Notes under the pieces: generated by a model
Seen by the model: only the letters and a program-made list of their open reading frames with translations
Database searches by the model: none
What the model was told of the DNA's origin: nothing
Part shown: positions 5,866 through 34,946 of the stretch, piece after piece
How the letters are laid out: the number at the start of each line of letters is the position of its first letter
Numbering within the stretch: position 1 is the first letter of the stretch
Translations under genes and position numbers: made by a program
From: an uncultured Alphaproteobacteria bacterium
GTDB lineage: Bacteria > Pseudomonadota > Alphaproteobacteria > Rs-D84
Assembly (NCBI GenBank): GCA_944392565.1
Contig: CALXWX010000002.1
Span: forward strand, 117,853-181,852
DNA length: 64,000 nt
Direction of reading: 5' to 3'

Positions 5866-5892
5866 AAAAACGGGGCATTTGCCCCGGTTTTT
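5865..5892. terminator. Bidirectional intrinsic terminator
   Basis: A-run, cggggc-attt-gccccg stem-loop, T-run. Lies immediately after the tolA-like stop. Confidence 0.75.
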
Positions 5893-6730
5893 ACATAACC
5901 TTTCCCTGGGTTGGATAGAATGTTAATTGAATCTTTTCCCATTTATCAAATTCATTTTCGGGCAACATTTTAAACGGCTGGCATACATTTATTGCACTGC
6001 GAATGGTATCCAATACATACGCAAATGCCGGATCTGTTTCCGCACGCGCCGCTGATTCAAACCAGACATCACGCACCGTACCATTGCGCCGCATTGTCAA
6101 ATGTGCAACCGCGCGTATACCATCAATATCCGGACGCGTTGTATCAATTGTCCAACACCGCGTCATCGCAACACGCAACGCATCAACAACTGATATCGTC
6201 AAAGTACGATCCAATGATAATACTTCGCGATTAACACGAATCACCGTTTTTTTCTTTTTTGGTTTTTCGTCTGTTTTTTCCGGTTCGGATTTATTTGCAT
6301 CCGCACTTTGTTCAACCGGTTTTACAACAGGTTCTGGAATTTCCGGTACATCTTCGATTAAGCTGGGTTCATCAATTGGTTCATCAACAATTTCTTGTAT
6401 CGGATCTGGTGCCGCATCATTTTCATTTGCACCATCGTTATCAGAACTGGTTTGTTCATCATTTGTTGGTGCCTCTGGCGCGGATTCCGGTTCTGACACT
6501 TCCACATCAGCATCCGCATTAACATTACGCAGTATTGTTTCATCCCCGCTGACACGCACAGAATCCAAATCTATTTCATAAATTTCAATTCTGTCGGGCG
6601 CAACCATTTTTGCACGATCAACGACAACAACAAACGATGTTATCATTATCGCCATCAACGCCAAATGCCCACAAACTGACATTAACAAGTTTTCTGATGA
6701 AAATCGTGTTCCAAATTTCATATTAAACAC
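5891..6730 (-). CDS. tolA: TolA-like protein (N-terminal TM anchor, acidic/Pro-rich linker, TonB/TolA-type C-terminal domain)
   Basis: Position after tolQ-tolR. Single TM, then the DE/P-rich spacer with a KKKK stretch, then a roughly 100-aa C-terminal domain. Confidence 0.75.
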   Translation of the reverse strand: MFNMKFGTRFSSENLLMSVCGHLALMAIMITSFVVVVDRAKMVAPDRIEIYEIDLDSVRVSGDETILRNVNADADVEVSEPESAPEAPTNDEQTSSDNDGANENDAAPDPIQEIVDEPIDEPSLIEDVPEIPEPVVKPVEQSADANKSEPEKTDEKPKKKKTVIRVNREVLSLDRTLTISVVDALRVAMTRCWTIDTTRPDIDGIRAVAHLTMRRNGTVRDVWFESAARAETDPAFAYVLDTIRSAINVCQPFKMLPENEFDKWEKIQLTFYPTQGKVM

Positions 6731-6732
6731 TG

Positions 6733-7137
6733 TTATTCTGCATCCAGTTGTGTACGCAAACCAACACGCTGGAATCCCGCATCTTTTAATTTACCCATTA
6801 TTGACATAACCGCACCATAATCAGCAGACGCATCGCCACTGATCATGATTGTTAAATCAGGATTTTCACCGCGCATCGCAACCACACGACGCACCGCATC
6901 ATCACGCGAAACCAATGTCTTGCCCACATAATAATTACCCGCGGCATCAACACTGATTTGAATTGCATGATCATTTCCCGACAATGCTGAATTTCCCGCC
7001 CGCGGCAGATTTAAATCAATTCCCGTGGTCAGCATCGGTGTCGTTACCATAAATACCGCCAACAAAACCGTCATGACATCAATCATTGGTGTCAGCGACA
7101 TTGTGGCATCTGTATTACGAATTCTTCTGCGTGTCAT
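6733..7137 (-). CDS. tolR: Biopolymer transport protein TolR/ExbD
   Basis: MSLTPMIDVMTVLLAVFMV signature and the ExbD fold length of 134 aa. Confidence 0.9.
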   Translation of the reverse strand: MTRRRIRNTDATMSLTPMIDVMTVLLAVFMVTTPMLTTGIDLNLPRAGNSALSGNDHAIQISVDAAGNYYVGKTLVSRDDAVRRVVAMRGENPDLTIMISGDASADYGAVMSIMGKLKDAGFQRVGLRTQLDAE

Positions 7138-7138
7138 A

Positions 7139-7660
7139 TTATTTTGCCCCGCGTTTATTATTTTTCGGAAATTTTTCGAACTTCATTTCTTTACATTTTT
7201 CCGTCAATTTATCATATAAATCATCAGACTTTTTACTGAAATAATAATATGCAACCGCCGCCGGCACCGCCGCAATCAGCCCCAACGCCGTTGTACCCAA
7301 TGCTGTTGCCAATCCCGGCGCAATAACACCAATTGACACCGATTGATTTATACCAATTGATGAAAAAGAATCCATCACACCCCAAATTGTACCAAACAAC
7401 CCAACAAACGGCGCGATATAAGACAACATTGACAAGAACCATAAATTTTTATCAAATGGTCGAATTAATTTATCTGCAATTGTCGATAAATTATCAGAAT
7501 TTTTAATCTGGACCGGATTTCTTTTTTGATAATGCCATAAACGAATTTTTTCAATTATAACCGCCCAAGAAATAACACTGCCCAAAATCAGAACCAGCGA
7601 AATAAACAATGTCATTAAATCGCCCGTGAACAATGTTGTAAAAGAAAACGCATTTGTCAT
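7139..7660 (-). CDS. tolQ: Tol-Pal proton channel protein TolQ/ExbB (short form)
   Basis: MotA/TolQ/ExbB motif FVGLFGTIWGVMDSF. Three TM helices. Confidence 0.9.
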   Translation of the reverse strand: MTNAFSFTTLFTGDLMTLFISLVLILGSVISWAVIIEKIRLWHYQKRNPVQIKNSDNLSTIADKLIRPFDKNLWFLSMLSYIAPFVGLFGTIWGVMDSFSSIGINQSVSIGVIAPGLATALGTTALGLIAAVPAAVAYYYFSKKSDDLYDKLTEKCKEMKFEKFPKNNKRGAK

Positions 7661-7689
7661 TTTATTTTTTCCCTTTTTTATTGTTTCTA

Positions 7690-8067
7690 TTATTCTTTAA
7701 ATGGTGCTGCAACTATATCTGGAATGCGCTTTGGCATCATATTCGCACCAATATATGCCGCCGTTCCTGACAGTATAGCACAAATTTCACCATCTTTCAC
7801 GAATTTTTGTTCAACCGATAACGATGCCGCCCCCAGTTTAACAACCGTTGTTTCAACAACAAACGCATCCCCCAGAAACAGTGGCTTAATATATCGTATG
7901 CTTAAATCACGGACAACGAAACCGACGTCGCCATCTGGAAATTTAATTCCGCGCAAAATATCCATACGCGCCCGTTCTGCAATTTCGATATATCGCCCAT
8001 GATACACTATACCACCGGCATCGGTATCTGCATACGCGATTGAAAATGGAAATTTATATACCTTCAT
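7690..8067 (-). CDS. ybgC: Tol-Pal-associated acyl-CoA thioesterase (4HBT family)
   Basis: [23 protein letters not shown] hot-dog motif. Canonical position upstream of tolQ. Confidence 0.9.
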
Positions 8068-9053
8068 TTTTCGATTCCTAAATGTTTATATCCCGCATCA
8101 GTAATAACACGACCGCGCGGCGTACGCTGAACGAACCCCATCTGCATTAAATACGGCTCTATTACATCTTCAATTGTATCAACTGGCTCTGACAGTGCCG
8201 CCGCCAAATTTTCAATTCCAACAGGTCCCCCAGCATAATGGCGCACAATCGCATTCATATATTCGCGGTCAATTTCATCCAGTCCACTTTCATCAATATG
8301 CAACTGGAACAATGTTGTCTTTATCGTATCTGATGAAATTTCTGTGCGTCCCAATGCAGTTGCAAAATCCCGCGCCCGCTTTAATAATCTGTTTGCAATA
8401 CGGGGTGTGCCACGCGCACTGTGTGCCAGCATTTTTGCGCCATCTGTATCAATCGGCATACCTAATATATTTGCACTGCGCATAATGATTTTTGCCAAAT
8501 CATCTGTTGTATAAAACGACAAACGCAAATCAATACCAAATCTGTCCCGTAATGGGTTTGACAGCAGTCCTGTACGCGTTGTTGCGCCCACCAAAGTAAA
8601 CGGGGGCAGGTCAATCCGTACACTTTTTGCCGATGGTCCTTCGCCCAACATTATATCCAACTTGAAATCTTCCATTGCGGAATATAAAACTTCTTCGATT
8701 GCGGTGGGCAAACGATGTATTTCATCAATAAACAGAACATCCATCGGTTCCAGCGATGTCAGTATTGCCGCCAAATCACCTTGCTTGGTCAGCATCGGTG
8801 CCGCTGTTGCACGAAAATTTGTTCCCAATTCATTTGCAACAATATGCGCCAGTGTTGTTTTTCCCAATCCCGGGGGACCATATAACAAAACATGATCCAT
8901 CGCTTCGCCGCGCGATTTTGCCCCAGATATAAATACAGATAAATTCTGCTTTAACGCGTCATGCCCAATAAAATCCGCCAACACGCGCGGACGAATGGAT
9001 GCCGCCATTTCATCTGGGATATTTGGATCTAAAAATCTGTCTGTATTCTGCAT
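8064..9053 (-). CDS. ruvB: Holliday junction branch migration helicase RuvB
   Basis: Walker [16 protein letters not shown], sensor and winged-helix regions. Start taken at MQNTDRF (ATG 9053); the track ORF extends to 9095. Confidence 0.95.
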
Positions 9054-12791: not shown

Positions 12792-14444
12792 ATGAACTTA
12801 TATAAATATATTTCTGAATCAATAAATAATAAACTGGGATTTGCTGCTAATTTAGAGGTTCCCCGCAATCGCGCATTTGGCGATTTTGCAACAAATGCCG
12901 CGATGGTTGGCGCAAAATCTGCAGGCAAAAATCCGCGTGAATTGGCGGGTGAAATCATACCCAAATTGCGTGATTTAGATTTCATCGCCGATGCATCAAT
13001 CGCAGGTCCCGGCTTCATAAATATAAAACTGCGCGATGATTTTATATGGCAATCTGCCGCCAAACCACATAATGAAAAAACAACCGCACCAAAAAAAATT
13101 GATTTAGATTATGGCGGATACAATGTTGGCAAAGCATTACATATCGGACACCTGCGAACATCAATTGTTGGCGATACATTCAACAGAATTGCAAAATACC
13201 TGGGGCATACAACCAAAAGTTATAACCATATTGGCGATTGGGGGCGCCCAATGGGGTTGATTATCGCATGGATTTTGGAATATGGCATGCCAAAAAATGC
13301 AGATGAACTGAATAAAATATATCCTGCATCAACCGAACGCGCAAAAAATGATGATGCATGGATGACCCGCGCCAAAAAAATCACTGCGGGATTACAATCT
13401 GGCAACCCAGAATATAAAAAAATTTATGATGCTTTTATGAAAATATCATTGGCACAAATGGATACGGTTTTACATCGTTTAAATCTGTTGCCATTTGATG
13501 CAACGATGGGCGAACGCGGTGTTGCACCATATGTTGCCGACACACAAAAAATTCTGGAATCGCATAACTTATTAACCGAATCAGATGGTGCAATGATTGT
13601 AAATGTAAAAACAGACGACGACACCGCCCCGATGCCGCCATTAATGTTCCGCACCAGTTCTGGCACACAGACATATGCCGCCGCAGATTTATCTGCGATA
13701 TATTACCGCACCCAAACAGACAATCCTGATATCATCGGATATTTCACAGATTCGCGCCAAAACTTGCACTTTCAACAGGTGTTTCGCGTTGCAAAAATGG
13801 CGAACATTACAAATGCCGAATTATTCCATACCGGATTCGGTGCATTAACCGGTTCCGACGGCAAACCGTTTAAAACCCGCGATGGTGGTGTTGCGGAATT
13901 GCTGGACATTCTGGACATGGTGAATGACGCGGTTCGTACACGTGTTGCAGACGCCGGAAAAACATTAGATAACGAAACAATTTCATCAATCGCACTGGCG
14001 GCAGTAAAGTTCAATGATTTGCTGCACGATGTACGCGCCGACTATGTATTCGACCCAAATCAAATCACCAGTTTCGAAGGACGCACCGGTCCATACATTT
14101 TATACACTGCGGTTCGTCTGAACAGCGTATTAAAACGGGCAGGGAATATCACGAATACCACCGCGCCAGAATTAACAGACGACGAACGCAATCTGTTAAT
14201 TGAAACACTGGATTTTGAACGCACAGTACACAGTGCATTTGAAAACCGTGCAACAGATATGATTGCAAATTATGCATATGATTTATGCCAACTGATAAAC
14301 ACATTTTATCATAACTGTCCGATTTTGCGTGATGACATCGATGAAAACACACGGGCAAAACGATTGACCATAACCCAGATTGCCCGCGATACATTGGCAA
14401 CCGCAATTGATTTAATGGGATTAAAAATACCAGATGAAATGTAG
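12792..14444 (+). CDS. argS: Arginine--tRNA ligase
   Basis: Start MNLYKYI at ATG 12792. The track ORF 12483.. runs through the kinase gene 3' end. HIGH-type LHIGHLRTSIVGD and a DALR anticodon-binding C-terminus. Confidence 0.94.
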   Translation: MNLYKYISESINNKLGFAANLEVPRNRAFGDFATNAAMVGAKSAGKNPRELAGEIIPKLRDLDFIADASIAGPGFINIKLRDDFIWQSAAKPHNEKTTAPKKIDLDYGGYNVGKALHIGHLRTSIVGDTFNRIAKYLGHTTKSYNHIGDWGRPMGLIIAWILEYGMPKNADELNKIYPASTERAKNDDAWMTRAKKITAGLQSGNPEYKKIYDAFMKISLAQMDTVLHRLNLLPFDATMGERGVAPYVADTQKILESHNLLTESDGAMIVNVKTDDDTAPMPPLMFRTSSGTQTYAAADLSAIYYRTQTDNPDIIGYFTDSRQNLHFQQVFRVAKMANITNAELFHTGFGALTGSDGKPFKTRDGGVAELLDILDMVNDAVRTRVADAGKTLDNETISSIALAAVKFNDLLHDVRADYVFDPNQITSFEGRTGPYILYTAVRLNSVLKRAGNITNTTAPELTDDERNLLIETLDFERTVHSAFENRATDMIANYAYDLCQLINTFYHNCPILRDDIDENTRAKRLTITQIARDTLATAIDLMGLKIPDEM

Positions 14445-14481
14445 AAAAACATACGGTATAATAATACCATATCGATTTTTC

Positions 14482-14510
14482 TTGACTTTTCGGGGCATGC
14501 GGGGCATAAT
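14482..14510 (+). promoter_or_regulatory. Sigma70-like promoter for rplM-rpsI
   Basis: TTGACT (14482-14487), 17 nt spacer, CATAAT (14505-14510). Confidence 0.5.
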
Positions 14511-14542
14511 TGTCCCGCTAAATTAATAAAAAGGTAAAAATT

Positions 14543-15016
14543 ATGGCAGCGACAAAATCGTTAAAAAAATGCGAATTAGATGCGAAATGGTATCTGATTG
14601 ACGCAACAGATTGCACGCTGGGGCGTTTGGCGGCATTTACCGCAAACATTCTGCGTGGCAAGAACAAGCCAACATGGACACCAAACATGGATTGTGGTGA
14701 TCATGTTATTATTATTAATGCGGATAAAGTGGCACTGTCTGGTAAAAAAGCGGATAAAACAAAATTCTTTTGGCATTCCCTGTGGACCGGCAGCACCAAG
14801 GAACGCACCCTGGGACAAATGCGCAATGAAAAACCAGAAAAATTGGTCTTCAATGCGGTAAAACGCATGATGGGACGCCGCACAGCGGTTGCATTGGCAA
14901 ACCAACGTTTGACCAAACTGCATGTGTACGCGGGTGCTGAACACAAACACGCGGCACAAAATCCAATTGTTATCGACTTTGCGGGCATGAACCGCAAAAA
15001 CAAAAGGGGCGAATAA
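14543..15016 (+). CDS. rplM: 50S ribosomal protein L13
   Basis: [16 protein letters not shown]...[12 protein letters not shown]. Confidence 0.97.
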
Positions 15017-15507
15017 TGACAGAAACAAAAAAGACTGCAACCAAGACAGCAGCAAAAACAACAAAAAAAGCGGCCCCAGCGAAGACAACCGCAAAAAAGG
15101 CGGTCGCGGATGTTAAATTGGCAAATGCAACATATGCAACAGGCAAACGTAAAGATTCTATTGCACGCGTATACATGGTTGCCGGGAAAGGTCAAATATT
15201 TATCAATGACATTCCTGTAAACGAATACTTTCGTCGCCCAGTGTTGCAAATGATTATTGCGCAACCATTTGGTATTACAAAACGCGACAGTGCGTATGAC
15301 ATACATGCATTCGTTGCCGGTGGTGGTCTGTCTGGCCAGGCGGGCGCCGTAAAACACGGTATTTCCAAGGCATTGGAAAAAGCGGAACCAGACCTGCGCA
15401 AGACATTAAAAGCCGCCGGGTTCTTGACCCGCGACAGTCGTGTTGTTGAACGTAAACACTTTGGTCGTCACAAGGCGCGTCGTTCAACCCAGTTCAGCAA
15501 GCGTTAA
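15016..15507 (+). CDS. rpsI: 30S ribosomal protein S9 (Lys/Ala/Thr-rich N-terminal extension)
   Basis: [10 protein letters not shown] core and C-terminal [14 protein letters not shown]-type overlap with rplM. Confidence 0.97.
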
Positions 15508-23197: not shown

Positions 23198-25414
23198 TTA
23201 AAACAATGGTGGGAAACAATCACCGCCACTTTCTGGGCAACAATTAAATCCCATTTCGCCCATATCTGTGTATACCTCTCCCGTACAGCATCCATTTACA
23301 TCTGGTGCTGTGCCATCCGGACACATTGGCATATTTTCATCAACCGTGGTGGTTGTTTCTGTCGAGTACAATGTTTCTGTATCATATTCCGGATCCGCGA
23401 TAAACATTTTTTCATTTTGCGAAACATTATATGCCGGCTTGCTGGCCAAGATTTCTTCTTCGCTTTCAATTACTGGCGCGGGTTCTGGTTCTATAACCGG
23501 GACCGGTTCTGCCACAGGCACTGTTTCCACAACTGGCACCGGTTCAACAACCGGTGTTGGTTCTGGCACAGGCTGGAGTTCTGGCTGGGGTGACGGTACA
23601 GGCTCTGGCACCGGTTCTGGTTCTGGTTCTGCCACAGTTGTTTCAACAGATTGCACATTTTCATCAACCGTAATTTCCGGGACAAATGGACTGTCCGCCG
23701 GCACTGTTTCCTGCACCACAGATGCATCTGCGACCGGTACCGTTGCCGCCAAGTCTGGTGTATTCTTGCTGGTATTTTTCTGGTACAGCCACAATGTAAA
23801 TATTGATAATGCAATTAATAAAACCAACATAATATAATATATCATCGTTGGCTTGCGCGGCGCTGGACTGGTTGGCACCTGGGTCCCAGTAATTGGCGAT
23901 ACCGGTCTGGCACCAGATGACATTGGCGCCGCCCCGATATTTTGCATCGGTTTTGCCGCGGCAACACCTGCGGTTGCCATTGCTGCGGCAGCGGCAACAT
24001 TTGGGTTTTCCACATCTGGCACAACCGGGGCGGGGCGCATTGATTCATTCACGCCATATGATGATGAATTCATGTCATTTTGGGGCATCGGCGCATTAAC
24101 AGATGTAATCGTATCCAATACCGGCGCCGTTTGCGGTTGCTGAACCGGCGTTTCCATTTGCTCTGACACTGGTCGCACATTGATTGGTGAATCTGTTGCG
24201 GTATTATTATCCAAATTTTTCGAAACAGGTGGCGCAAACGACAGCGGTGAATTATCCATATTTTCACCATACGCATCCATGTTTTTATTCGTTTCTGGTG
24301 TTGTTGTCGAACTTGCCGGGCTGGAAACACCGAATTCGATTGGTTTAAATGCGATTTCTTCATCCAAGATTTCTGGATCTTTATCAAATAATGGTTTTAC
24401 ATCGTTTTCATTTTCCGCCATTGGTTCCGCCTTTGTCTGTTCTGATAAATCTGTATTAAAAGTTATATTTTCATCATATTCAATATTATTTGCATCATCA
24501 TTATCATATTGAAAATCAGTCGAATTGTCATCAGCATTTTCATCTGTATCATCATCAATATCTGAATCTGATTGCATCGGTACTGGCGCATCCGTCCGTA
24601 CAACCAAATCATTTGACGCCATCGCCGCTGGTAAATTTATATTTTGTTCATTTTTATTATTACCTGGCACCGATGCCATATGCGAATTTTCAGATACATT
24701 GCGTGGCGTACGCGCCAAAATATCGCGTGCCGTTTCCGCATCTTCATCTGCGGCAACCAAACGCCGTTGGGCGTTATCCAATCTTTTTTTTGCCCGGCGC
24801 AGTTTTTCATTAATAACATCAATTTGCGCATCTGTTTTCAATATTTTTGATGCCGATTGCTTTGTTGGTTCGCGTCCAACTTGTTTTTTCTGCTGGCTCA
24901 GTTTTGATTTCAATTGCTTTAACCGCACGCGTAATTCTGCGATTGAATCATTTGTACGAATAATCGTATCCCGCGCCTTGGCTGCATTTGATTCCGCCAT
25001 CGCCAATCGTTCAGACGCCGCCCGATGAATAGATTCATCACGAAAACGGATTAATTCCATCAATTCATTTGTAATATCCGCACCATTTTCATATGCATGA
25101 ATCAACGCATCATACGCCGCCAACCCACTGTATTCAATATCCAGCTTTTGATATTTATTATCTTTCTTTGGGCGAACGGTTTCTAAATCAACATTGTAAT
25201 CATTTGCCAGAATATCATCCCACTTTCTGTCGCCAACCGGATTTATCACCAATAAAACATTTGGCTTTCTGTCATCAATTGTACTGTCCAGAACGAACAC
25301 CAGCTTGCCATCTGCATCATAATATGCCCGGAACACATTACCAACGATATTAAAATCCCGCGATGTTAAAACAGAATTCATATTTTCCCCCTCGCTTACC
25401 ACCATGTGTTCCAT
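23198..25414 (-). CDS. Large bitopic protein: N-terminal globular plus coiled-coil region, long disordered region, one TM, Pro-rich (PEPVPV)n spacer, Cys-rich C-terminal knot
   Basis: 738 aa. TM is MIYYIMLVLLIALSIFTLWLY. Pro-rich repeats are encoded at about 23470-23650. C-terminus is CPDGTAPDVNGCCTGE...FNCCPESGGDCF. The start lies 3 nt after the gcrA stop. Confidence 0.8.
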   Translation of the reverse strand: MEHMVVSEGENMNSVLTSRDFNIVGNVFRAYYDADGKLVFVLDSTIDDRKPNVLLVINPVGDRKWDDILANDYNVDLETVRPKKDNKYQKLDIEYSGLAAYDALIHAYENGADITNELMELIRFRDESIHRAASERLAMAESNAAKARDTIIRTNDSIAELRVRLKQLKSKLSQQKKQVGREPTKQSASKILKTDAQIDVINEKLRRAKKRLDNAQRRLVAADEDAETARDILARTPRNVSENSHMASVPGNNKNEQNINLPAAMASNDLVVRTDAPVPMQSDSDIDDDTDENADDNSTDFQYDNDDANNIEYDENITFNTDLSEQTKAEPMAENENDVKPLFDKDPEILDEEIAFKPIEFGVSSPASSTTTPETNKNMDAYGENMDNSPLSFAPPVSKNLDNNTATDSPINVRPVSEQMETPVQQPQTAPVLDTITSVNAPMPQNDMNSSSYGVNESMRPAPVVPDVENPNVAAAAAMATAGVAAAKPMQNIGAAPMSSGARPVSPITGTQVPTSPAPRKPTMIYYIMLVLLIALSIFTLWLYQKNTSKNTPDLAATVPVADASVVQETVPADSPFVPEITVDENVQSVETTVAEPEPEPVPEPVPSPQPELQPVPEPTPVVEPVPVVETVPVAEPVPVIEPEPAPVIESEEEILASKPAYNVSQNEKMFIADPEYDTETLYSTETTTTVDENMPMCPDGTAPDVNGCCTGEVYTDMGEMGFNCCPESGGDCFPPLF

Positions 25415-25417
25415 GAT

Positions 25418-25963
25418 TTATTTCTTTTTTGGCGGCGTAAATTGATATGCCTGCTTGCAATGTTCATAACAGTATGGCTTGCCAACAAACACCGGCGCCC
25501 CACAGAAGTGAAATTTTTCAGAATCCGGATCGCCAATTGGCCAGCGACACTGATTAGGCTTTAAATTTGCCATTTCCAACGAATGCTGAATAATGCGTTG
25601 ATGCATCGCCAGGGTTTTATTCAGGTTTTTACCGGCACCACCAACAGACTTTTTACCTGCGACTGCCTTTGGCGCGACAGTTTTTTTATCTGCGTCCTTT
25701 ACTTTTTTTACACCTTGAACAGTTTTTTTACCCGACACAGACTTGCCGACAACCTTTTTTCCAGAATTCTTTTTTGCTGTGCCAGATGCCTTGTCCACCG
25801 TGGCAACACCACCCGCCTTGGAATTCCAGCCCAGCCGGTTTAATTTTCCCACAACCGCATTTTTTGACATCCCCAGCCGTTTTCCAATTTCTGATGTTGA
25901 TAACCCTTTACCCATCAACGACTTTAATTTTTTCAGCATTACGCTGTCCCAGCCTTTACTCAT
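25418..25963 (-). CDS. gcrA: Cell-cycle transcriptional regulator GcrA
   Basis: N-terminal W....KLK.L...GLS.SEI...LG.S.NAV.GK..RLGW and C-terminal CRWPIGDP....F.FCG......PYC..H. Confidence 0.92.
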   Translation of the reverse strand: MSKGWDSVMLKKLKSLMGKGLSTSEIGKRLGMSKNAVVGKLNRLGWNSKAGGVATVDKASGTAKKNSGKKVVGKSVSGKKTVQGVKKVKDADKKTVAPKAVAGKKSVGGAGKNLNKTLAMHQRIIQHSLEMANLKPNQCRWPIGDPDSEKFHFCGAPVFVGKPYCYEHCKQAYQFTPPKKK

Positions 25964-26034: not shown

Positions 26035-26523
26035 ATGAATATATCGTTTGATTTGTATAACATATCTTTCATTGTTTTGCTGGCTGTATCTGCATGGCTG
26101 GCATGGCGTATATCTGTTGCCGATTGGCGCCGCCGAATAATTCCCGACGCATATTTATTCCCACTGTTGCTGATTGGACTGATAATAATTGCGTTTTTCC
26201 CATGGGTTAGCAACATTGGCGACTCTGCAATTGCCGCCATATGCGGATACGCCCTGGCGGCAATTATTGGATATTTATTTGATATTACAAAAACAAAAAA
26301 TCATAAACATTCTGTTGTTGCCCCCATTGGTATGGGTGATATAAAACTGATATCTGTCGGCGGGATATGGCTGGGGACATTTGGTCTGGCATTGGCATTG
26401 GTTATTGCATGTGTATCAGGCATGGTATGGGGATATATCAAACGCCAAAAATACATTCCATTGGCACCATTCTTTATTGGCGGTGGAATTTTATCTTTAA
26501 TTATAAACACCTTTTTGTTATAA
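26035..26523 (+). CDS. A24-family prepilin peptidase, CpaA/TadV type (no methyltransferase domain)
   Basis: Two catalytic Asp contexts, ADWRRRIIPD and GMGDIKL. 5 TM helices. Confidence 0.85.
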   Translation: MNISFDLYNISFIVLLAVSAWLAWRISVADWRRRIIPDAYLFPLLLIGLIIIAFFPWVSNIGDSAIAAICGYALAAIIGYLFDITKTKNHKHSVVAPIGMGDIKLISVGGIWLGTFGLALALVIACVSGMVWGYIKRQKYIPLAPFFIGGGILSLIINTFLL

Positions 26524-26553
26524 TAGATTAATAACAGGGAAAATGGACAGGGA

Positions 26554-27471
26554 ATGAAACAACAAACAATATTTAAAATTTGCGCAATATTTGGGGTTGC
26601 AATAACTGCGCCGGCAATGGCGACAACATTTCCGTCTGCAACAACACCATTTTCACAATATGGTCAAATTCAAAATGTGCAAAACTATTCATCAAACCCG
26701 TTTTGGAATCCAAATGCCCCATATAACCAGCGTCCACCCGTTCCCGTATATGTCCAGGGTCCCGATATCGACACCAATGATTGCCAATCAATTGTTGCGG
26801 CACTGGTTGCGTCGTATTGTGCATCACATGATAATTGCAAAGATGTTGATGTAAATGATGCGCGTTCAACAATTACGGTACAATTGGCCAGTTTACCAAA
26901 TTATAACTATGTGACACCATGCGCGGGCTATATTGATACCGAATTTGAACACTATGTTTCACAACATTCTGTATTCACCCCCAGCAGTGTTCCCGTCGCA
27001 TTCCCCCAGGCGCAAAATCCGGGATCAAACATCCAATCGGGCGGCACAACATTTGAAAACCCATATGCCCCACAATTACCAACATGGAATGGCGAACCAT
27101 GGATGCAAGAAATGCTTCAACGCCGGCAAGAATTACAAAACCTGCAATCTGCAAACGGCGGCAATAATCCCCAACTGACACGGGCGGAATTCCCCAAAAC
27201 CGCAAATGATTTAACATTTATCCAACGCACACAAAACGATGCCGCGGGGTACGCACCATACGCCGGCAAATCTGCATACGAAACATTAAACCTGGATGCG
27301 GTGGTCGCCGAACAAAATGAAATTGTAAAACAGCGGCAAAATGCGTATTGCAATAATGCCCCGCAAATGTTGGCGACATTAAATGCTGATTTAGCAACCC
27401 TGGAAAAATGCAAAACTGAAAATGTTGCATTTGAAACATGCCTGACCAAATTACAGGGGGTATATTATTAA
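26554..27471 (+). CDS. Secreted Q/N/P-rich protein, unknown function
   Basis: Signal peptide ending APAMA. The C-terminal helical region has 3 Cys. The stop overlaps the next start (TAATG). Confidence 0.75.
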   Translation: MKQQTIFKICAIFGVAITAPAMATTFPSATTPFSQYGQIQNVQNYSSNPFWNPNAPYNQRPPVPVYVQGPDIDTNDCQSIVAALVASYCASHDNCKDVDVNDARSTITVQLASLPNYNYVTPCAGYIDTEFEHYVSQHSVFTPSSVPVAFPQAQNPGSNIQSGGTTFENPYAPQLPTWNGEPWMQEMLQRRQELQNLQSANGGNNPQLTRAEFPKTANDLTFIQRTQNDAAGYAPYAGKSAYETLNLDAVVAEQNEIVKQRQNAYCNNAPQMLATLNADLATLEKCKTENVAFETCLTKLQGVYY

Positions 27472-28760
27472 TGCGTATACAAAATATATTATTTTCTTTC
27501 GTTTTTTTGGCATTATTATCCAGTTCTGCGTATTCTTTGGATATATCAAGCATAATCAACACAACAAACTATCAACAACGGTATCATACACAAACATATA
27601 CAATTGGTCCAGACGGTCAATCTTTGTTGTATCGTGGCAGGGACACGGGTATGAAACTATCTACCCCTGGGCAAGCTGGATCTACAATTCGTGTTACAGA
27701 CAATAATATCCCCGTCAGAACATACACTAGTGGCGGCACAAGTACCGGATCCGGTGGTACTGGGGGGGGCGCTGGTGGCACAACTGGCACAGGAACAACA
27801 GGCACCGGCACAGGTACAGGAACAACGGGTACAGGCGGTACCGGCGGCACCGGTGGTACAGGTACCGGAACAGGAACTGGCACTGGTACCAACACCGGAA
27901 CAAATGCTAGCAACAGCACAAACAGAACCGGTAATCGAATTAACGCGCGTGGTGTTGCAAGTGGGGCATTGGGCGCGATTGGCGCTATTAGTGGTACAAT
28001 GGGCGTGATTGATTCTGCATCTGGTTCTGGTGAACATTCATGGGGCGATGTATTACAAGGAACAATCAGTGGCGCCACTGCAACGGCTGGGGGGGCAGCT
28101 GTAATCAATGCAATTCCTGGGATTGGACAAATTGGATACGGCGTTGCAATTGCTGTTGGGGCTGTTGGCGGTGCAGTTATTTCCGGTTCCCAGTTATTTT
28201 CAGAAACAGATTGTCTGCATGATCCGGTTACAGGATTATTCACATGTTGCCACACACAATTTAACCAGGGTGAACGCTATGCCGATATTGGCGATTATAT
28301 GTTTTGTGGTGTTGAACAAGATGACGGTTCCGTAAACTTGATTAAACCCGGCGTTCGCCAATGTTTGCAAGATGGTGAAGCAACCGCCGCATCATGGTGG
28401 GATGGATTATGGAAAGATGATTTTTGGCAACCCGAATGTGTTGTGCGTATTTGTGACAACACTGAACCACCGACCGAATTCCCGGGATATATAGATTACG
28501 AACCCGATACAACAAATATATGTTGGAATTGGGTATGCATTAACGGATATGAACGCCAGGGTAATACATGTGTTGCAACCGGTGGCGGTTCAAATGACGG
28601 CGGAAATCCGGGCGGCACCCCACCACCATCATCCGCATTACCAATTGATCAATATAATAAATTAATTAATCAAATCCAGGCTGAACGCCAACGATTAATA
28701 CAACAGTGCGGTCATATGCTGGGCAATACTGCAAATATAACATCGCCAACAACAAAATAA
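27471..28760 (+). CDS. Secreted protein with Gly/Thr-rich spacer, glycine-zipper hydrophobic region and Cys-rich C-terminal domain
   Basis: Start MRIQNILFSF at ATG 27471. (G/T)n is encoded at about 27731-27915 and includes a G8 tract at 27772-27779. GALGAIGAISGTMG...GVAIAVGAVGGAVISG. More than 10 Cys follow. Confidence 0.8.
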   Translation: MRIQNILFSFVFLALLSSSAYSLDISSIINTTNYQQRYHTQTYTIGPDGQSLLYRGRDTGMKLSTPGQAGSTIRVTDNNIPVRTYTSGGTSTGSGGTGGGAGGTTGTGTTGTGTGTGTTGTGGTGGTGGTGTGTGTGTGTNTGTNASNSTNRTGNRINARGVASGALGAIGAISGTMGVIDSASGSGEHSWGDVLQGTISGATATAGGAAVINAIPGIGQIGYGVAIAVGAVGGAVISGSQLFSETDCLHDPVTGLFTCCHTQFNQGERYADIGDYMFCGVEQDDGSVNLIKPGVRQCLQDGEATAASWWDGLWKDDFWQPECVVRICDNTEPPTEFPGYIDYEPDTTNICWNWVCINGYERQGNTCVATGGGSNDGGNPGGTPPPSSALPIDQYNKLINQIQAERQRLIQQCGHMLGNTANITSPTTK

Positions 28761-30470
28761 ATGCGACAATTTTTAATTTCTTTTATATTTGCAACATGTA
28801 TGATATCCACCGCATTCGGTGCGGATGCTTTTACGCCGATTTCGGAAATTCAAACACGCACACCCGATGATACCCAATGCGCCACGGGCGTATTTGCAAA
28901 CGCATTATCTGAAACCGTAAGTACTGTATCAGAAACTGATGATGAAATAACAATTCGAAAATGGATTTATGATGCATTCAGCGCGCCCGAAACAATAGAA
29001 AAAGTACTGGCATGTCCTGAAATCGCATCGGCGGCGGATGATGACACAATTACATTTTTACCAATTGAATATACTTTTCCTGGTGGGCGTCAAATCGTTG
29101 TAAATTATGAAACCCAGCCAAAGATACTAAAACAACGCTTAACAATTGCCCAAAAACGCGAATTACCATCTGACACAAACCCCAGTCCACAAATCGGCGC
29201 CCCAGATGACGCATCTGTTTGGACAAATACCGATCCAGCATGGTATGCGATAATGGTTGTTGAACATGGCGCACTGGATGAATTCGTGGGACCAGACAAG
29301 AATAACACCATATCGCTGCAATGGATAAACGATAACATCGATGACATATATCCCCACGGCAACAGTTGCACCAGCAAAACCGCACTGGCGGGCGATAATG
29401 ACATGGTAAACCTGGCGGGCAAGGCAACAGTAAATCTGACAGACGACACAAATGATTACTATGTTGCAGGCGATGCAAATCTGCAATGGATATCATACCT
29501 GGAAATCGGATTGGATGTTGTAATAACGGTGGCAACATTTGGGGGTGGGGCGGTTGTATTGGGTGCGACCAAGGCTGCCCGTGCATCACGCGCATTAAAA
29601 AATCTGACCACAGCAATGCGTGCATTACGCCAAGAACAGGCTGTGATAAATTATATCAAGATTGTAAATCAACACACGCGTGCATTACGCGAATTGCAAG
29701 CAATTGACCGTGCCACAGACGCCGCCAGATATGCATCCAAACTGGACGAGGTTGAAAACCTGGCGCGCCAAATGCGCAACATGGAACGAAACAGCGACCT
29801 GGTTCGTGATTATCGCCAGGCCAGTGATACATTTTCATCACTGAACCAATATCGCCGCGCATTGCGCAGTTTGCGCCCGGCACAGCGTGGAAACATTATG
29901 GCACGCGCATGGCGTGCATTTCGTGCGGCAAACACTGGGGGAAAGAAAATAAATCGCGCCGCCCGCATTGCACGCAGCAGCATGAAATCAGGACGCATAC
30001 GCGACTGGCTGTTTCAATCAACACTCAGCAATGTTGGCGCATTGGCAAAAATGGAAGAGGCGGGCGGATTTATATACGGCGCATTAAATTTTGTTGGCGG
30101 CATGTATGATTGGACAGAAACCAGTACTGGCGAATTTACGAATGATATAGAATTTAAACCATTAACACTGTTGTCTGCGGATGATTTGCAGGGTCAAGAA
30201 AATGTTGTAAATCACGGAATGTGGTTTATGTGGTTGGGTGATTCCGTTAATCCTGCTGATGACGATGCCGCATATTTACAGGCAATGGATTTTGCCGATA
30301 AATTTCACTATAATCTGGAAGAAATTCAAACCGATAAAAACAACCACGCATGTAATGTTGATATATATGTCGTTCGTCCAATAATACGAAATCCCGGTAC
30401 TGAAAACGCCGAAATGTATTATTTAATAATGAATGATGAACCATGGACAACAAATAACACCGGCGAATAA
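28761..30470 (+). CDS. Secreted/membrane-associated protein, unknown function (central hydrophobic segment, Arg-rich helical region)
   Basis: The ATG directly abuts the previous stop. Signal peptide ending STAFG. LEIGLDVVITVATFGGGAVVLGA, then an RxxR-rich helical stretch. Confidence 0.75.
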   Translation: MRQFLISFIFATCMISTAFGADAFTPISEIQTRTPDDTQCATGVFANALSETVSTVSETDDEITIRKWIYDAFSAPETIEKVLACPEIASAADDDTITFLPIEYTFPGGRQIVVNYETQPKILKQRLTIAQKRELPSDTNPSPQIGAPDDASVWTNTDPAWYAIMVVEHGALDEFVGPDKNNTISLQWINDNIDDIYPHGNSCTSKTALAGDNDMVNLAGKATVNLTDDTNDYYVAGDANLQWISYLEIGLDVVITVATFGGGAVVLGATKAARASRALKNLTTAMRALRQEQAVINYIKIVNQHTRALRELQAIDRATDAARYASKLDEVENLARQMRNMERNSDLVRDYRQASDTFSSLNQYRRALRSLRPAQRGNIMARAWRAFRAANTGGKKINRAARIARSSMKSGRIRDWLFQSTLSNVGALAKMEEAGGFIYGALNFVGGMYDWTETSTGEFTNDIEFKPLTLLSADDLQGQENVVNHGMWFMWLGDSVNPADDDAAYLQAMDFADKFHYNLEEIQTDKNNHACNVDIYVVRPIIRNPGTENAEMYYLIMNDEPWTTNNTGE

Positions 30471-30530
30471 TTCCCCATTGTATTTTTAAATTTGAAAAAC
30501 TATAATAATATTACCAGGGGGCGTAATATC

Positions 30531-30848
30531 ATGAAAAAAATATTATCATCAATATTAATCATCATGACATTTATTGGCGGCGCAAGCGCATATCAACTGT
30601 TATCATCCAAAGAATTGGGCAAAAATGATGCCAAGAATCAAACCGTTGTTGTAAAATGCACAACAGACACGGGCAAAACATCAAACCAAACATGCACATT
30701 GCGCCGATATGCCAAATGCACCGGCACCGGCAGCAATAAAAAATGCAGCGGTTGGCAACCATGGCAAGATTTACGCAACCCCCGCAAACAATATTCAGAT
30801 TGGCGCAGTGCCGCATCTGCATGTTGCCGCGCCAAGGGGTTAAGATAA
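30531..30848 (+). CDS. Small basic secreted Cys-rich protein
   Basis: AGGGGG SD plus ATG 30531. Signal peptide ending GGASA. 8 Cys in about 85 mature residues. Confidence 0.7.
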   Translation: MKKILSSILIIMTFIGGASAYQLLSSKELGKNDAKNQTVVVKCTTDTGKTSNQTCTLRRYAKCTGTGSNKKCSGWQPWQDLRNPRKQYSDWRSAASACCRAKGLR

Positions 30849-30889
30849 TAAAAGATCCGTCAATTGACGGATTTTTTATTCAAATTTCA

Positions 30890-32234: not shown

Positions 32235-34946
32235 ATGAAAAAGTTTTTATCTTTTGCATGGATTTTTGCAATTTGCATCGGCATTGCCAATGCGGCTGTT
32301 CGTGATGAAAACGCAACGAATCGCGAAAATAATTCCACATCAAATAATGTTGCACAAAATATATCATCACGCACTGCCGCATCCGCAACCCCGGGCATTT
32401 CCCGAACCACAACATCGCGCGCGGCATCGCAAACAATTGTCCCGCGGTCCAATAACCGCACAACCACATCGCGCGCCGCAACATCACGCAGTGCCGCAAC
32501 ATCCGCCACAAACGCAACCACTGTACGTTCTGGCGCAACGATATCACGCAGTGGCACCACCCAACGCACAGCATCAATAACGCGCCGTCCATTAACACAA
32601 CCCCAAACCACTTCACGTGCGGCAACCACCACGGCAACAATGTCCGACACACAAATTGGCGCCGAATACGAACAATGCAAAAGCGCATATTTCACATGCA
32701 TGGATCAATTTTGCCAATTAAAAAATGATGATTATCGCCGTTGCTCATGCAGCAATCGTGTATTCGATTTAACGGACATTCGTAACACAATGCAAGATGC
32801 CAGCGATAAATTAACCGTGTTCACAGAAAATCTGGATGTTGTCGGCATGACATCAGAACAGGCAACCGCCATGAAAACCGCATCTGAGGGTGAAAATGCC
32901 CTGACGGCGGATACATCTGCATCCAAGGCATTATTAAAGGCAATAATGAATTCAATTCGTGGCGATGATACAACGGTTGGCGGAAAGTTCACCGACCTGA
33001 ACAGCATAAATTTATCATTTGATACAACAAATGCATTTGGCTTATCTGATGCGGGTCAAATTATTTCAACATATAACGGACAAAATTTATACAGTGCTGT
33101 ATATCCTCAATGCCGCGAAGCAGTTCGCGCTGATTGCACAGACGCACAATTACAACGCGCCATAAATGCATATTTGATGGCAATTGAACAAGACTGCAAC
33201 ACTGTTGAAAGCGCACTGGTACAACAGCAATCAGAAATGAAAGCCGCCGTCCGCGAAAGCAGCGCAATGTTGGATTTGGCACGCGTTGAAAACCGTCAAA
33301 ACCATAATTCTGACGATATGGCGACATGTCTGGCAAATGTAGAATCCGCAATACTCAGCGAAGAAGTATGCGGTGCAAACTATCACAAATGCCTGGACAA
33401 TGGTCAATTTATTGATGTTTCCACCGGCGCCCCAATCGCAGGTGTTGAAAACTTTTATGAACTGGGGAATTTGTTAAAATTTGCCGACAATGTTGATGCC
33501 GCCGATCAAAAATTATCAAAAATTTCATCAAACCGCGCATTTGTCCAAAACTTTGAAAAACGCGTTAAAAAATTTGCCGAACCTGCACTGGACAAATGTA
33601 CAGAACAGGCAGATATCGTATGGTCTGAATATCTGGATAAAGCAATGCTGGATATATATTACGCCCAACAGTCCAAGGTTGCAGAAATTAAACAAGGATG
33701 TTTTGATTTTGTATCGGCATGCTATATGAACGGCGATACTGCATTAACCGCTGCAATGGCTGAATTAACCGGCGATGATGGTGTGTTATTACAACCAGAC
33801 AAGGTTACATTATCAACAGAAATGTGTCGTGATTACATTGATTCATGTAATATGATGTTTTATGACCAAACCGGTGGCGAAAATATTGTGACAGATTACA
33901 TAAACAATCGCCAAGACACGGACACATTAACCGCATGCCGCGCGGTTGTCCAGCAATGTTTTGACAGTTTTGGCGGCAACGGATATGAAAACTTTTACTA
34001 TCCATACAGTGGTCTGTTCAGTGCAGGGAAAGCATTAGATTGGTTCACATTATATAAATATAATGATGCCGGCGTTATAGATAAAACACAACCTGTATCT
34101 GAATGCGCACGACAATTAACAGAAATTTCATCATGCAACACCCCGGAAATAATTGAACAGGCATTTGGCGGATTTAATATAATACCCGCATCAGTCGGTG
34201 TATATGGTACCGATACATCTCAAATATCTGTTATTTACTTAGACACAACCAGTTCCGAAACAAAATATGGCACATTGCAAGATTCGCCGACCATGATCAA
34301 TGACGGGGCAAATGAAGTATATTTATTAAATCATCATGTACCGCGTCCAACGGGCGTCGCCACAGAAATATATAACCAAATTGTTGACATATTGACAACA
34401 CAATGCACGAACCTGCAAGGCAGATTTATAGAATATCAATTTGTAAAAAGTGCATATAATCAATCAAACTTTTGTCTTGCCAATTTCAAAGGTTCAGAAT
34501 ACGATCAGTCTGACTCTCGAATAATAGACCTGTATGGAATCGGCACAAACGAAGACATGTGTCCACGTAATTATGGATTAAATGTTGACACACAATCATG
34601 GGGCGCATGTTTGTGCTGGGAAAATGGTGGTCGCCGCAGCAAATGGGGGACCAGTCCAAAATGTGTTGCCGCATCGCCTGCTGGTCAAAAAATTAACGCT
34701 ACCACTATTGAATTCGTAGAAGCAAATGATGCCGAATGTGATAATGTCAAAGATGCCCATGGAAATCTTATCGATGTTGTTATAAAGCAGGCTACCAGCA
34801 CCATGAAAAAATCAAACTGGTGTACACAAACACCAACATTAAACACCAACTTGGTTTGCCCAATTGCATCCACACAAAACGAGAAAAACCAATGCGTTGA
34901 CGAAACCGGCAATGTCATAAAATACATACCCGACGGTTTACAATAA
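32235..34946 (+). CDS. Large secreted Cys-rich protein, unknown function, with Ser/Thr/Arg-rich N-terminal repeats
   Basis: Signal peptide ending GIANA. The (T-T-S-R-A-A)-like repeats are encoded at about 32330-32640. About 40 Cys, often as C-x6-8-C in helical context. 903 aa. Confidence 0.8.
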   Translation: MKKFLSFAWIFAICIGIANAAVRDENATNRENNSTSNNVAQNISSRTAASATPGISRTTTSRAASQTIVPRSNNRTTTSRAATSRSAATSATNATTVRSGATISRSGTTQRTASITRRPLTQPQTTSRAATTTATMSDTQIGAEYEQCKSAYFTCMDQFCQLKNDDYRRCSCSNRVFDLTDIRNTMQDASDKLTVFTENLDVVGMTSEQATAMKTASEGENALTADTSASKALLKAIMNSIRGDDTTVGGKFTDLNSINLSFDTTNAFGLSDAGQIISTYNGQNLYSAVYPQCREAVRADCTDAQLQRAINAYLMAIEQDCNTVESALVQQQSEMKAAVRESSAMLDLARVENRQNHNSDDMATCLANVESAILSEEVCGANYHKCLDNGQFIDVSTGAPIAGVENFYELGNLLKFADNVDAADQKLSKISSNRAFVQNFEKRVKKFAEPALDKCTEQADIVWSEYLDKAMLDIYYAQQSKVAEIKQGCFDFVSACYMNGDTALTAAMAELTGDDGVLLQPDKVTLSTEMCRDYIDSCNMMFYDQTGGENIVTDYINNRQDTDTLTACRAVVQQCFDSFGGNGYENFYYPYSGLFSAGKALDWFTLYKYNDAGVIDKTQPVSECARQLTEISSCNTPEIIEQAFGGFNIIPASVGVYGTDTSQISVIYLDTTSSETKYGTLQDSPTMINDGANEVYLLNHHVPRPTGVATEIYNQIVDILTTQCTNLQGRFIEYQFVKSAYNQSNFCLANFKGSEYDQSDSRIIDLYGIGTNEDMCPRNYGLNVDTQSWGACLCWENGGRRSKWGTSPKCVAASPAGQKINATTIEFVEANDAECDNVKDAHGNLIDVVIKQATSTMKKSNWCTQTPTLNTNLVCPIASTQNEKNQCVDETGNVIKYIPDGLQ

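Follow-up and report, generated by a model that had tools for sequence, protein, structure and literature searches.

What is a prepilin peptidase doing at the head of a gene set that contains no pilus gene? The question is raised by a 64-kb window (the whole stretch of DNA that was analysed) from an uncultured bacterium of the Candidatus Enterousia group, order Rs-D84, whose genome comprises 939 kb in 7 contigs and is 99% complete; C1 and C2 below are other contigs of the same genome. In this window the gene of an A24 prepilin peptidase is followed by four genes for exported proteins of 305, 429, 569 and 105 residues, here called O305, O429, O569 and O105, all five being co-oriented on the plus strand between positions 26035 and 30848. 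An original prediction, made from the letters of the window, had described an envelope-directed, translationally linked set behind the peptidase, which the present analysis supports, and had proposed for it a role at the outer surface or in host interaction, from which the present analysis departs. Here, I show that a type IVb pilus set is present elsewhere in the genome and that the order of the genes behind the peptidase is conserved in relatives. The favoured reading, with an overall probability of about 0.45, is that the four proteins form an envelope complex, specific to the family and associated with peptidoglycan, whose genes are transcribed together with that of the peptidase and which serves the pilus.

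A dispersed type IVb pilus system

The first gene (26035-26523, plus strand, 162 aa) is predicted to encode a short A24 prepilin peptidase, PilU/TadV-like and without a methyltransferase domain. The protein matches Pfam Peptidase_A24 (PF01478) with 53.8 bits against a cut-off of 26.5 (E = 3e-14) and carries both catalytic aspartate motifs, RRIIPD38 and GMGD102. It is the single match to this family in the genome. Of 121 genomes of the order, 109 have the peptidase, and its divergent pairing with gcrA is kept in four families.

According to the original prediction, no ATPase, secretin or assembly gene stands beside the enzyme. This holds for the window and fails for the genome, where a type IVb set lies on C1. 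One group of genes (C1:284539-289801) encodes a small lipoprotein, PilO (PF06864, 37.4 bits, cut-off 26.7), a PilP-family coiled-coil protein (TIGR03021, 32 bits, just below the cut-off of 34.65), a GspE/PilB-type ATPase (T2SSE, 219 bits) and a T2SSF platform protein (97 bits), the stretch from PilO to the platform occupying 284539-289237. A second group (C1:168365-170983) holds a secretin and a neighbouring TcpQ-domain protein (PF10671, 65 bits, cut-off 27); the secretin exceeds the cut-off of PF00263, and no other model fits it nearly as well as that of the PilN type IVB family, TIGR02520 (E = 7e-73), whose score of 245.8 bits stays below the equivalog cut-off of 287.65. Pilins with class III leaders, in which a slash here marks the cleavage site, are encoded at C1:376904-377362 (MKQESG/ASLIE, aligning with the N-terminal helix of a Geobacter pilin) and at C1:150287-150751 (MIQESG/RSMIE), and two large proteins with pilin-like leaders follow one another at C1:379462-382018 (379462-380817 and 380795-382018), the second of them with the class III leader RG/ASMTE. 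The genome is thus predicted to encode a complete but dispersed pilus system of the R64/PilN type, its genes being scattered over at least five loci. The system appears to be ancient in the lineage and conserved across the order, with the TcpQ protein in 24 of 25 genomes from six families and the pilin in 56 of 61. In one genome paper, type IV pili are mentioned for another lineage only (PMC12306168).

The likeness to the R64 thin pilus (PilL-PilV) extends over these parts: a TcpQ-domain PilL-like protein, a PilN-family secretin, a lipoprotein gene upstream of PilO, PilO itself, PilP, the ATPase, the platform, PilS-like pilins, large pilin-like proteins and a short peptidase. The genes of R64, in contrast, form one operon, and the four exported proteins of the window have no counterpart there. 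The enzyme also resembles TadV/CpaA, being a short A24 protein with two aspartate motifs and no methyltransferase domain; nonetheless a Tad/Flp (type IVc) system was rejected, for no Flp-type pilin motif was met in a regular-expression scan of the genome (a scan that is not exhaustive), the ATPase is fitted far better by GspE/PilB models than by that of the TadA family, the secretin is PilN-like, and PilO and TcpQ domains are present. Where the original prediction had allowed for a peptidase serving a Tad locus elsewhere, a pilus locus elsewhere was indeed found, albeit of type IVb and not of the Tad type. The puzzle of an orphan peptidase is resolved by the presence of a full pilus set in the same genome: the enzyme belongs to the dispersed type IVb system, whose class-III-leader pilins on C1 would be its substrates, and that it serves this pilus is very probable.

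Uncultured bacteria of Candidatus Enterousia and its order, with genomes of about 0.9 Mb, are common in the guts of animals and humans, and their type IVb pilus is a definite candidate for the means by which they attach, take up DNA or export protein. A 964-aa Cys-rich repeat protein is encoded at C1:165221-168115, on the same strand as the secretin and TcpQ genes and directly 3' of them; it could be a pilus-associated adhesin or cargo.

Four exported protein families and their relatives

Behind the peptidase the genes follow each other closely. O305 (26554-27471) begins after a gap of 30 nt and overlaps O429 (27471-28760) in a TAATG at 27469-27473, with an AGGGGG 10 nt upstream; the TAA of O429 (28758-28760) abuts the ATG of O569 (28761-30470), and a gap of 60 nt, with CAGGGGG ahead of the start, separates O569 from O105 (30531-30848). 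The open reading frame list also offers longer, mechanical starts at 27438 and 30492; those at 27471 and 30531 are favoured because of the signal peptides that they yield and of the AGGGGG-type Shine-Dalgarno sites. The set is closed by a bidirectional intrinsic terminator (30855-30878) with T-runs on both strands, whose palindromic hairpin ATCCGTC-AATT-GACGGAT at 30855-30872, followed by T6, also terminates a minus-strand tRNA-Val gene. A pattern scan found no convincing plus-strand terminator inside the gene set before 30855, and the peptidase and the four downstream genes are likely to be co-transcribed. All four proteins carry Sec signal peptides with n-, h- and c-regions and AxA-like sites (AMA/TT, AYS/LD, AFG/AD and ASA/YQ for O305, O429, O569 and O105, respectively), none has a class III leader, and the features of a type IV pilin or pseudopilin, namely a basic leader ending in Gly, a hydrophobic helix and Glu at +5, are absent from all four. 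Junctions, orientation, Sec signals, lack of pilin leaders and closing terminator all agree with the original prediction, as does its statement that the proteins have no recognisable domains. Pfam, NCBIfam and PHROG models gave no match for any of the four or for O903, an exported protein encoded further downstream; sequence-profile searches of the Protein Data Bank (PDB) with the O105, O305 and O569 alignments returned nothing; Foldseek searches with AlphaFold2 (AF2) models of O305 and O569, confident in part only, against the PDB, and of O569 also against BFVD, yielded no match at E <= 0.001, coiled-coil noise apart.

Relatives are numerous and confined to one lineage. A profile of O569 run against 1.84 billion protein representatives produced 140 matches, all from its own family. 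A separate search met relatives of O569 in 34 of the 37 genomes of the genus that it covered and in none of the other five families of the order. Metagenomic data add 844 homologues of O569, all without a name or a Pfam domain, as well as 421 of O305 and 381 of O105, of which those listed carry neither an informative name nor a Pfam domain that would explain the family. The relatives of O569 come from 111 species genomes, many of which bear the label Candidatus Enterousia and stem from chicken, ruminant, horse and human guts. One contig with an O569 homologue (L151) was deposited as Bacteroides fragilis, probably through a binning or labelling error. O429 and O569 are not significantly similar to each other by BLASTP. 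Judged by these searches, the four proteins belong to undescribed, conserved families that appear to be lineage-specific.

O305 consists of a conserved N-terminal peptide (about 30-68), a four-helix domain with four invariant cysteines (70-140), modelled very confidently within an AF2 model of pLDDT 69, and a C-terminal helical hairpin with Cys, and bears the motif FPxTxxDLxF..AGYxPY at residues 213-235. In the alignments its most conserved stretch (PFSQYGQIQNVQNYSSNPFWNP...) comes right after the signal peptide and reads S34..G37.IQNVQ.YS.NPF..P...YN.R.P...Y..G69; these approximately 40 residues are predicted by AF2 to be disordered, a pattern that fits a peptide folding on a conserved partner.

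O429 is composed of a signal peptide, a small N-terminal domain, a Gly/Thr spacer, two glycine-zipper hydrophobic segments (162-180 and 211-243) and a C-terminal domain with 11 Cys. All runs of at least seven G in the window fall within its gene, a G8 at 27762-27769 in the part encoding the Gly/Thr spacer (counted as two overlapping G7 matches) and a G7 at 28089-28095, a number that is not above chance (3 found against 4.5 expected); these tracts are candidates for on/off switching by slipped-strand mispairing. In O569 a Sec signal is followed by an acidic N-terminal domain (22-244), a glycine-zipper transmembrane segment (247-271), a basic coiled-coil loop (271-420; 33 K/R against 12 D/E), a second hydrophobic segment (about 421-455) and an acidic C-terminal domain (456-569), the AF2 model (pLDDT 62) showing both of these domains with confidence as well as a long coiled coil. 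O105, small, basic (pI 10) and with six Cys, is the best conserved of the set, with 50-82% identity to the window protein across the genus.

By a crude count, approximately 46 of the 855 open reading frames of the genome have a signal-like N-terminus and at least six Cys. A search for the Dsb oxidoreductases, which the original prediction had suggested, gave one membrane-anchored DsbA-like thioredoxin (FSCPYC; C1, about 14400-15400) and, in the whole genome, no DsbB (PF02600).

The locus was compared in 20 genomes of the same genus and in 15 of other genera. In the genus, acpS, a gene for a 738-aa protein and gcrA are followed, in divergent orientation from gcrA onwards, by the peptidase, O305, a variable slot, O569, an optional gene and O105, and further on by O903 and lpxB. 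That the four-gene order and its linkage to the peptidase should be conserved in relatives, as the original prediction had proposed to check, is borne out in 20 of 20 same-genus loci and in three more genera (g15, g16 and g18), which is more than chance would allow; most of the relatives that were compared have O105 at the end of the set. The slot, highly variable between species, is filled by an O429-like protein, by an O569 paralogue (24-30% identity) or by a shorter hairpin protein made of an O569-like N-terminal domain and two back-to-back glycine-zipper segments, and in two genomes (G033 and G035) a single hairpin protein is found with O305 and O105 still kept. Fusions are observed as well: O305 is joined to an O569 paralogue in L022, L024, L026, L068 and L105 and to the C-terminal domain of O429 in L019.

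A muramidase enters the same arrangement. In six relatives a GH108 (Glyco_hydro_108) gene is placed between O569 and O105, in three of them accompanied by PG_binding_3, a weaker match that is above its cut-off in one only, and in L028, L029, L030 and P0277 O569 carries the GH108 domain as a C-terminal fusion. Within their first 100 residues the free GH108 muramidases have FPxTxxDxSF..R..N.AAGYxPY, the motif of O305 213-235. Because of the fusions of O305 with O569 paralogues, of the linkage and fusion of GH108 to O569, and of this shared motif, the relatives indicate that the four proteins probably work together.

A periplasmic, wall-associated complex of the four proteins is accordingly named here as a rather probable arrangement. 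O429 and O569 look like inner-membrane proteins anchored by a glycine-zipper hairpin, their N- and C-termini both lying in the periplasm, a topology suggested by the Sec signals, the basic loop of O569, the 11-Cys C-terminal domain of O429, the C-terminal GH108 fusions and the back-to-back zipper segments of the short paralogues; the basic coiled coil of O569 would then be cytoplasmic. O305 would act as a soluble adaptor that combines its conserved, flexible N-terminal peptide with a helical domain held by disulfide bonds and with a motif for docking, O105 as a small, basic, disulfide-rich partner, and in relatives the complex would recruit or carry the GH108 peptidoglycan hydrolase. Four families without a known fold, genetically tied to a muramidase, make a defined and testable envelope complex.

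Between the wall and the pilus

The step from the wall to the pilus is the more tentative part, and a partnership of the complex with the pilus is better called possible than probable. It is suggested by the tight coupling to the peptidase, kept in four genera with its 30-nt gap and no terminator; by the adjacency that persists in genera g14 and g19, where the O305/O569 genes are convergent with the peptidase; by parallels in other type IVb operons; and by the use, in type IVb cargo proteins, of a flexible aromatic N-terminal peptide, to which that of O305 may correspond. As for the parallels, in R64 the lytic transglycosylase gene pilT adjoins the peptidase gene pilU, the pilus is aided at the wall in other type IVb systems by dedicated lytic enzymes whose genes neighbour that of the peptidase, and the operons of cofJ and tcpF have these genes close to the peptidase gene. 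Relatives of the window likewise have a wall-lytic gene in the peptidase operon, although it encodes a GH108 enzyme and not a lytic transglycosylase. Along the same line, a wall-cutting enzyme lying within a machine-associated operon and tethered or fused to membrane components recalls VirB1, PilT of R64, BfpH and EtgA, from which the present case differs by the use of GH108 with PG_binding_3 and by tethering partners, the O305 motif and O569, that are undescribed. The complex would serve the pilus at the wall by making a passage for it, by anchoring it or as its cargo. Were the link true, it would provide a new accessory module for type IVb systems; a new peptidoglycan-spanning apparatus, built of O305, the glycine-zipper hairpin proteins (O429/O569 family) and O105 and coupled to the pilus of these gut Alphaproteobacteria with reduced genomes, be it a GH108-capable module for wall passage or anchoring or a pilus-dependent export route for O305, is unlikely.

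Several observations weigh against the favoured reading. No pilus-protein homology was found in the four proteins, and the pilus set is order-wide whereas the families of O305 and O569 are confined to a single family, so they are not core pilus parts. In genera g13 and g17 the O305/O569 genes are not adjacent to the peptidase, and in g14 and g19, as said, their orientation is inverted; in another family of the order (f3: L077:9649-15401 and L078:10013-15283) the peptidase, divergent from gcrA, is followed by four unrelated paralogous exported proteins, with which the O569 family has no similarity by hhalign. The GH108 gene is absent from the window's own operon, and O569 has a second hydrophobic segment that is weak and comes out poorly in the model. 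The remaining pilus genes lie scattered, the acpS-lpxB synteny is very stable in these small genomes, and the adjacency to the peptidase may be inertia.

The four proteins might instead be a wall or envelope module unrelated to the pilus, engaged for example in wall remodelling or in envelope integrity during growth and division, and lying next to the peptidase through frozen gene order, a reading with a fair minority chance of being right, about equal to that of the pilus link. The whole neighbourhood from acpS and gcrA through the peptidase to lpxB is syntenic, the remaining pilus genes are dispersed, the families of O305 and O569 arose much later than the pilus system, the inverted orientation in two genera points the same way, and the GH108 link suits general wall metabolism. 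In one genome of g14 (G072, L067:4313-9638), moreover, an O305 fusion and O569 are encoded directly 3' of tolQ-tolR-tolA and in the same direction. As in Tol-Pal, the proteins would be anchored in the inner membrane with periplasmic domains at the wall, yet no homology was found, and TolB (C1:136997-138262) and tolQRA are present separately, so O305/O569 are not a replacement for missing Tol-Pal parts; a TolB-Pal replacement was rejected on the presence of TolB in 11 of 11 genomes tested. Against an independent wall module stand also the tight coupling to the peptidase in four genera and the survival of the adjacency through a flip of orientation. In the window, ybgC-tolQRA (about 5890-8070) lies approximately 18 kb upstream, on the minus strand.

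A different use of the pilus would be the export of O305, and perhaps of O105, as cargo, the protein crossing the inner membrane by Sec, docking by its N-terminal peptide on a minor pilin at the pilus tip and leaving through the secretin. A Sec signal is present, the most conserved stretch stands just behind the cleavage site, is rich in aromatic residues and predicted to be disordered, the genome encodes two large minor-pilin-like proteins, and the positions of cofJ and tcpF (see above) offer a precedent for exported non-pilin proteins encoded with the pilus peptidase. TcpF of Vibrio cholerae and CofJ of ETEC are colonisation factors that are exported by Sec and then secreted by type IVb pili (PMC9565799, PMC6048534). 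Their secretion signals are short and flexible, lie at the N-terminus and centre on a key aromatic residue (PMC9565799); the peptide of O305 may resemble them. The known signals are, however, of approximately 11 residues and clade-specific (PMC9565799), whereas the stretch in O305 covers approximately 40 residues and is conserved across genera; no similarity of sequence or fold to TcpF or CofJ was found, and the fusion of O305 to membrane-anchored O569 paralogues in several genomes is hard to square with release from the cell. Export of this kind is thus quite improbable.

Still less probable is the outer-surface or host-interaction module of the original prediction, in which the proteins would be adhesins or variable surface proteins. 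The slot gene varies highly between species, the G8 and G7 tracts of O429 could slip, and the genome is rich in Cys-rich exported proteins; but no outer-membrane anchor, lipobox or beta-barrel signature was seen in the four proteins, O305, O569 and O105 are conserved rather than diversifying, and the hairpin anchors, the basic loop, the Cys-rich C-terminal domain and the GH108 fusions, which place the C-terminus at the wall, point to inner membrane, periplasm and peptidoglycan. Least credible is that the A24 peptidase was recruited to cut the glycine-rich membrane segments encoded beside it instead of pilins, an idea judged unlikely once pilins with canonical G/xxxxE leaders and a full type IVb set had been found in the genome, the class III leader being wanting in the four proteins.

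Neighbouring genes and other peptidase loci

The only GH108 gene of the genome (C2:78937-79512) encodes a protein of 191 aa without a signal peptide, in a different context. It stands behind genes for a 400-aa protein and a very hydrophobic 110-aa protein (C2:77323-79512), a group that could be the remnant of a prophage or form a cassette for lysis or a toxin.

Downstream of the terminator, O903 (32235-34946, plus strand) encodes an exported protein that is Ser/Thr/Arg-rich and then Cys-rich. The original prediction had grouped it with the four proteins; the link is positional only, O903 keeping its syntenic place after the operon and before lpxB. In family f3, each of the four proteins encoded behind the peptidase has a basic Ser/Arg/Lys/Thr-rich stretch, a Cys-rich helical region, a Gly/Ala-rich hydrophobic glycine-zipper segment and a short conserved C-terminal motif, and a C..Y..CM..C motif in them has a weak likeness to the beginning of the Cys-rich part of O903 (hhalign E = 7e-4, probability 26%).

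On the other side of the peptidase, across a 71-bp spacer, lies the divergent gene of the cell-cycle regulator GcrA (25418-25963, minus strand; Pfam GcrA, E = 1.4e-28). Together with the gene of a bitopic coiled-coil protein of 600-1000 aa (the pair occupying 23198-25963 in the window), gcrA is kept divergent from the peptidase in families f1-f4, and this linkage of gcrA, coiled-coil protein and peptidase appears to be much older than the four exported proteins.

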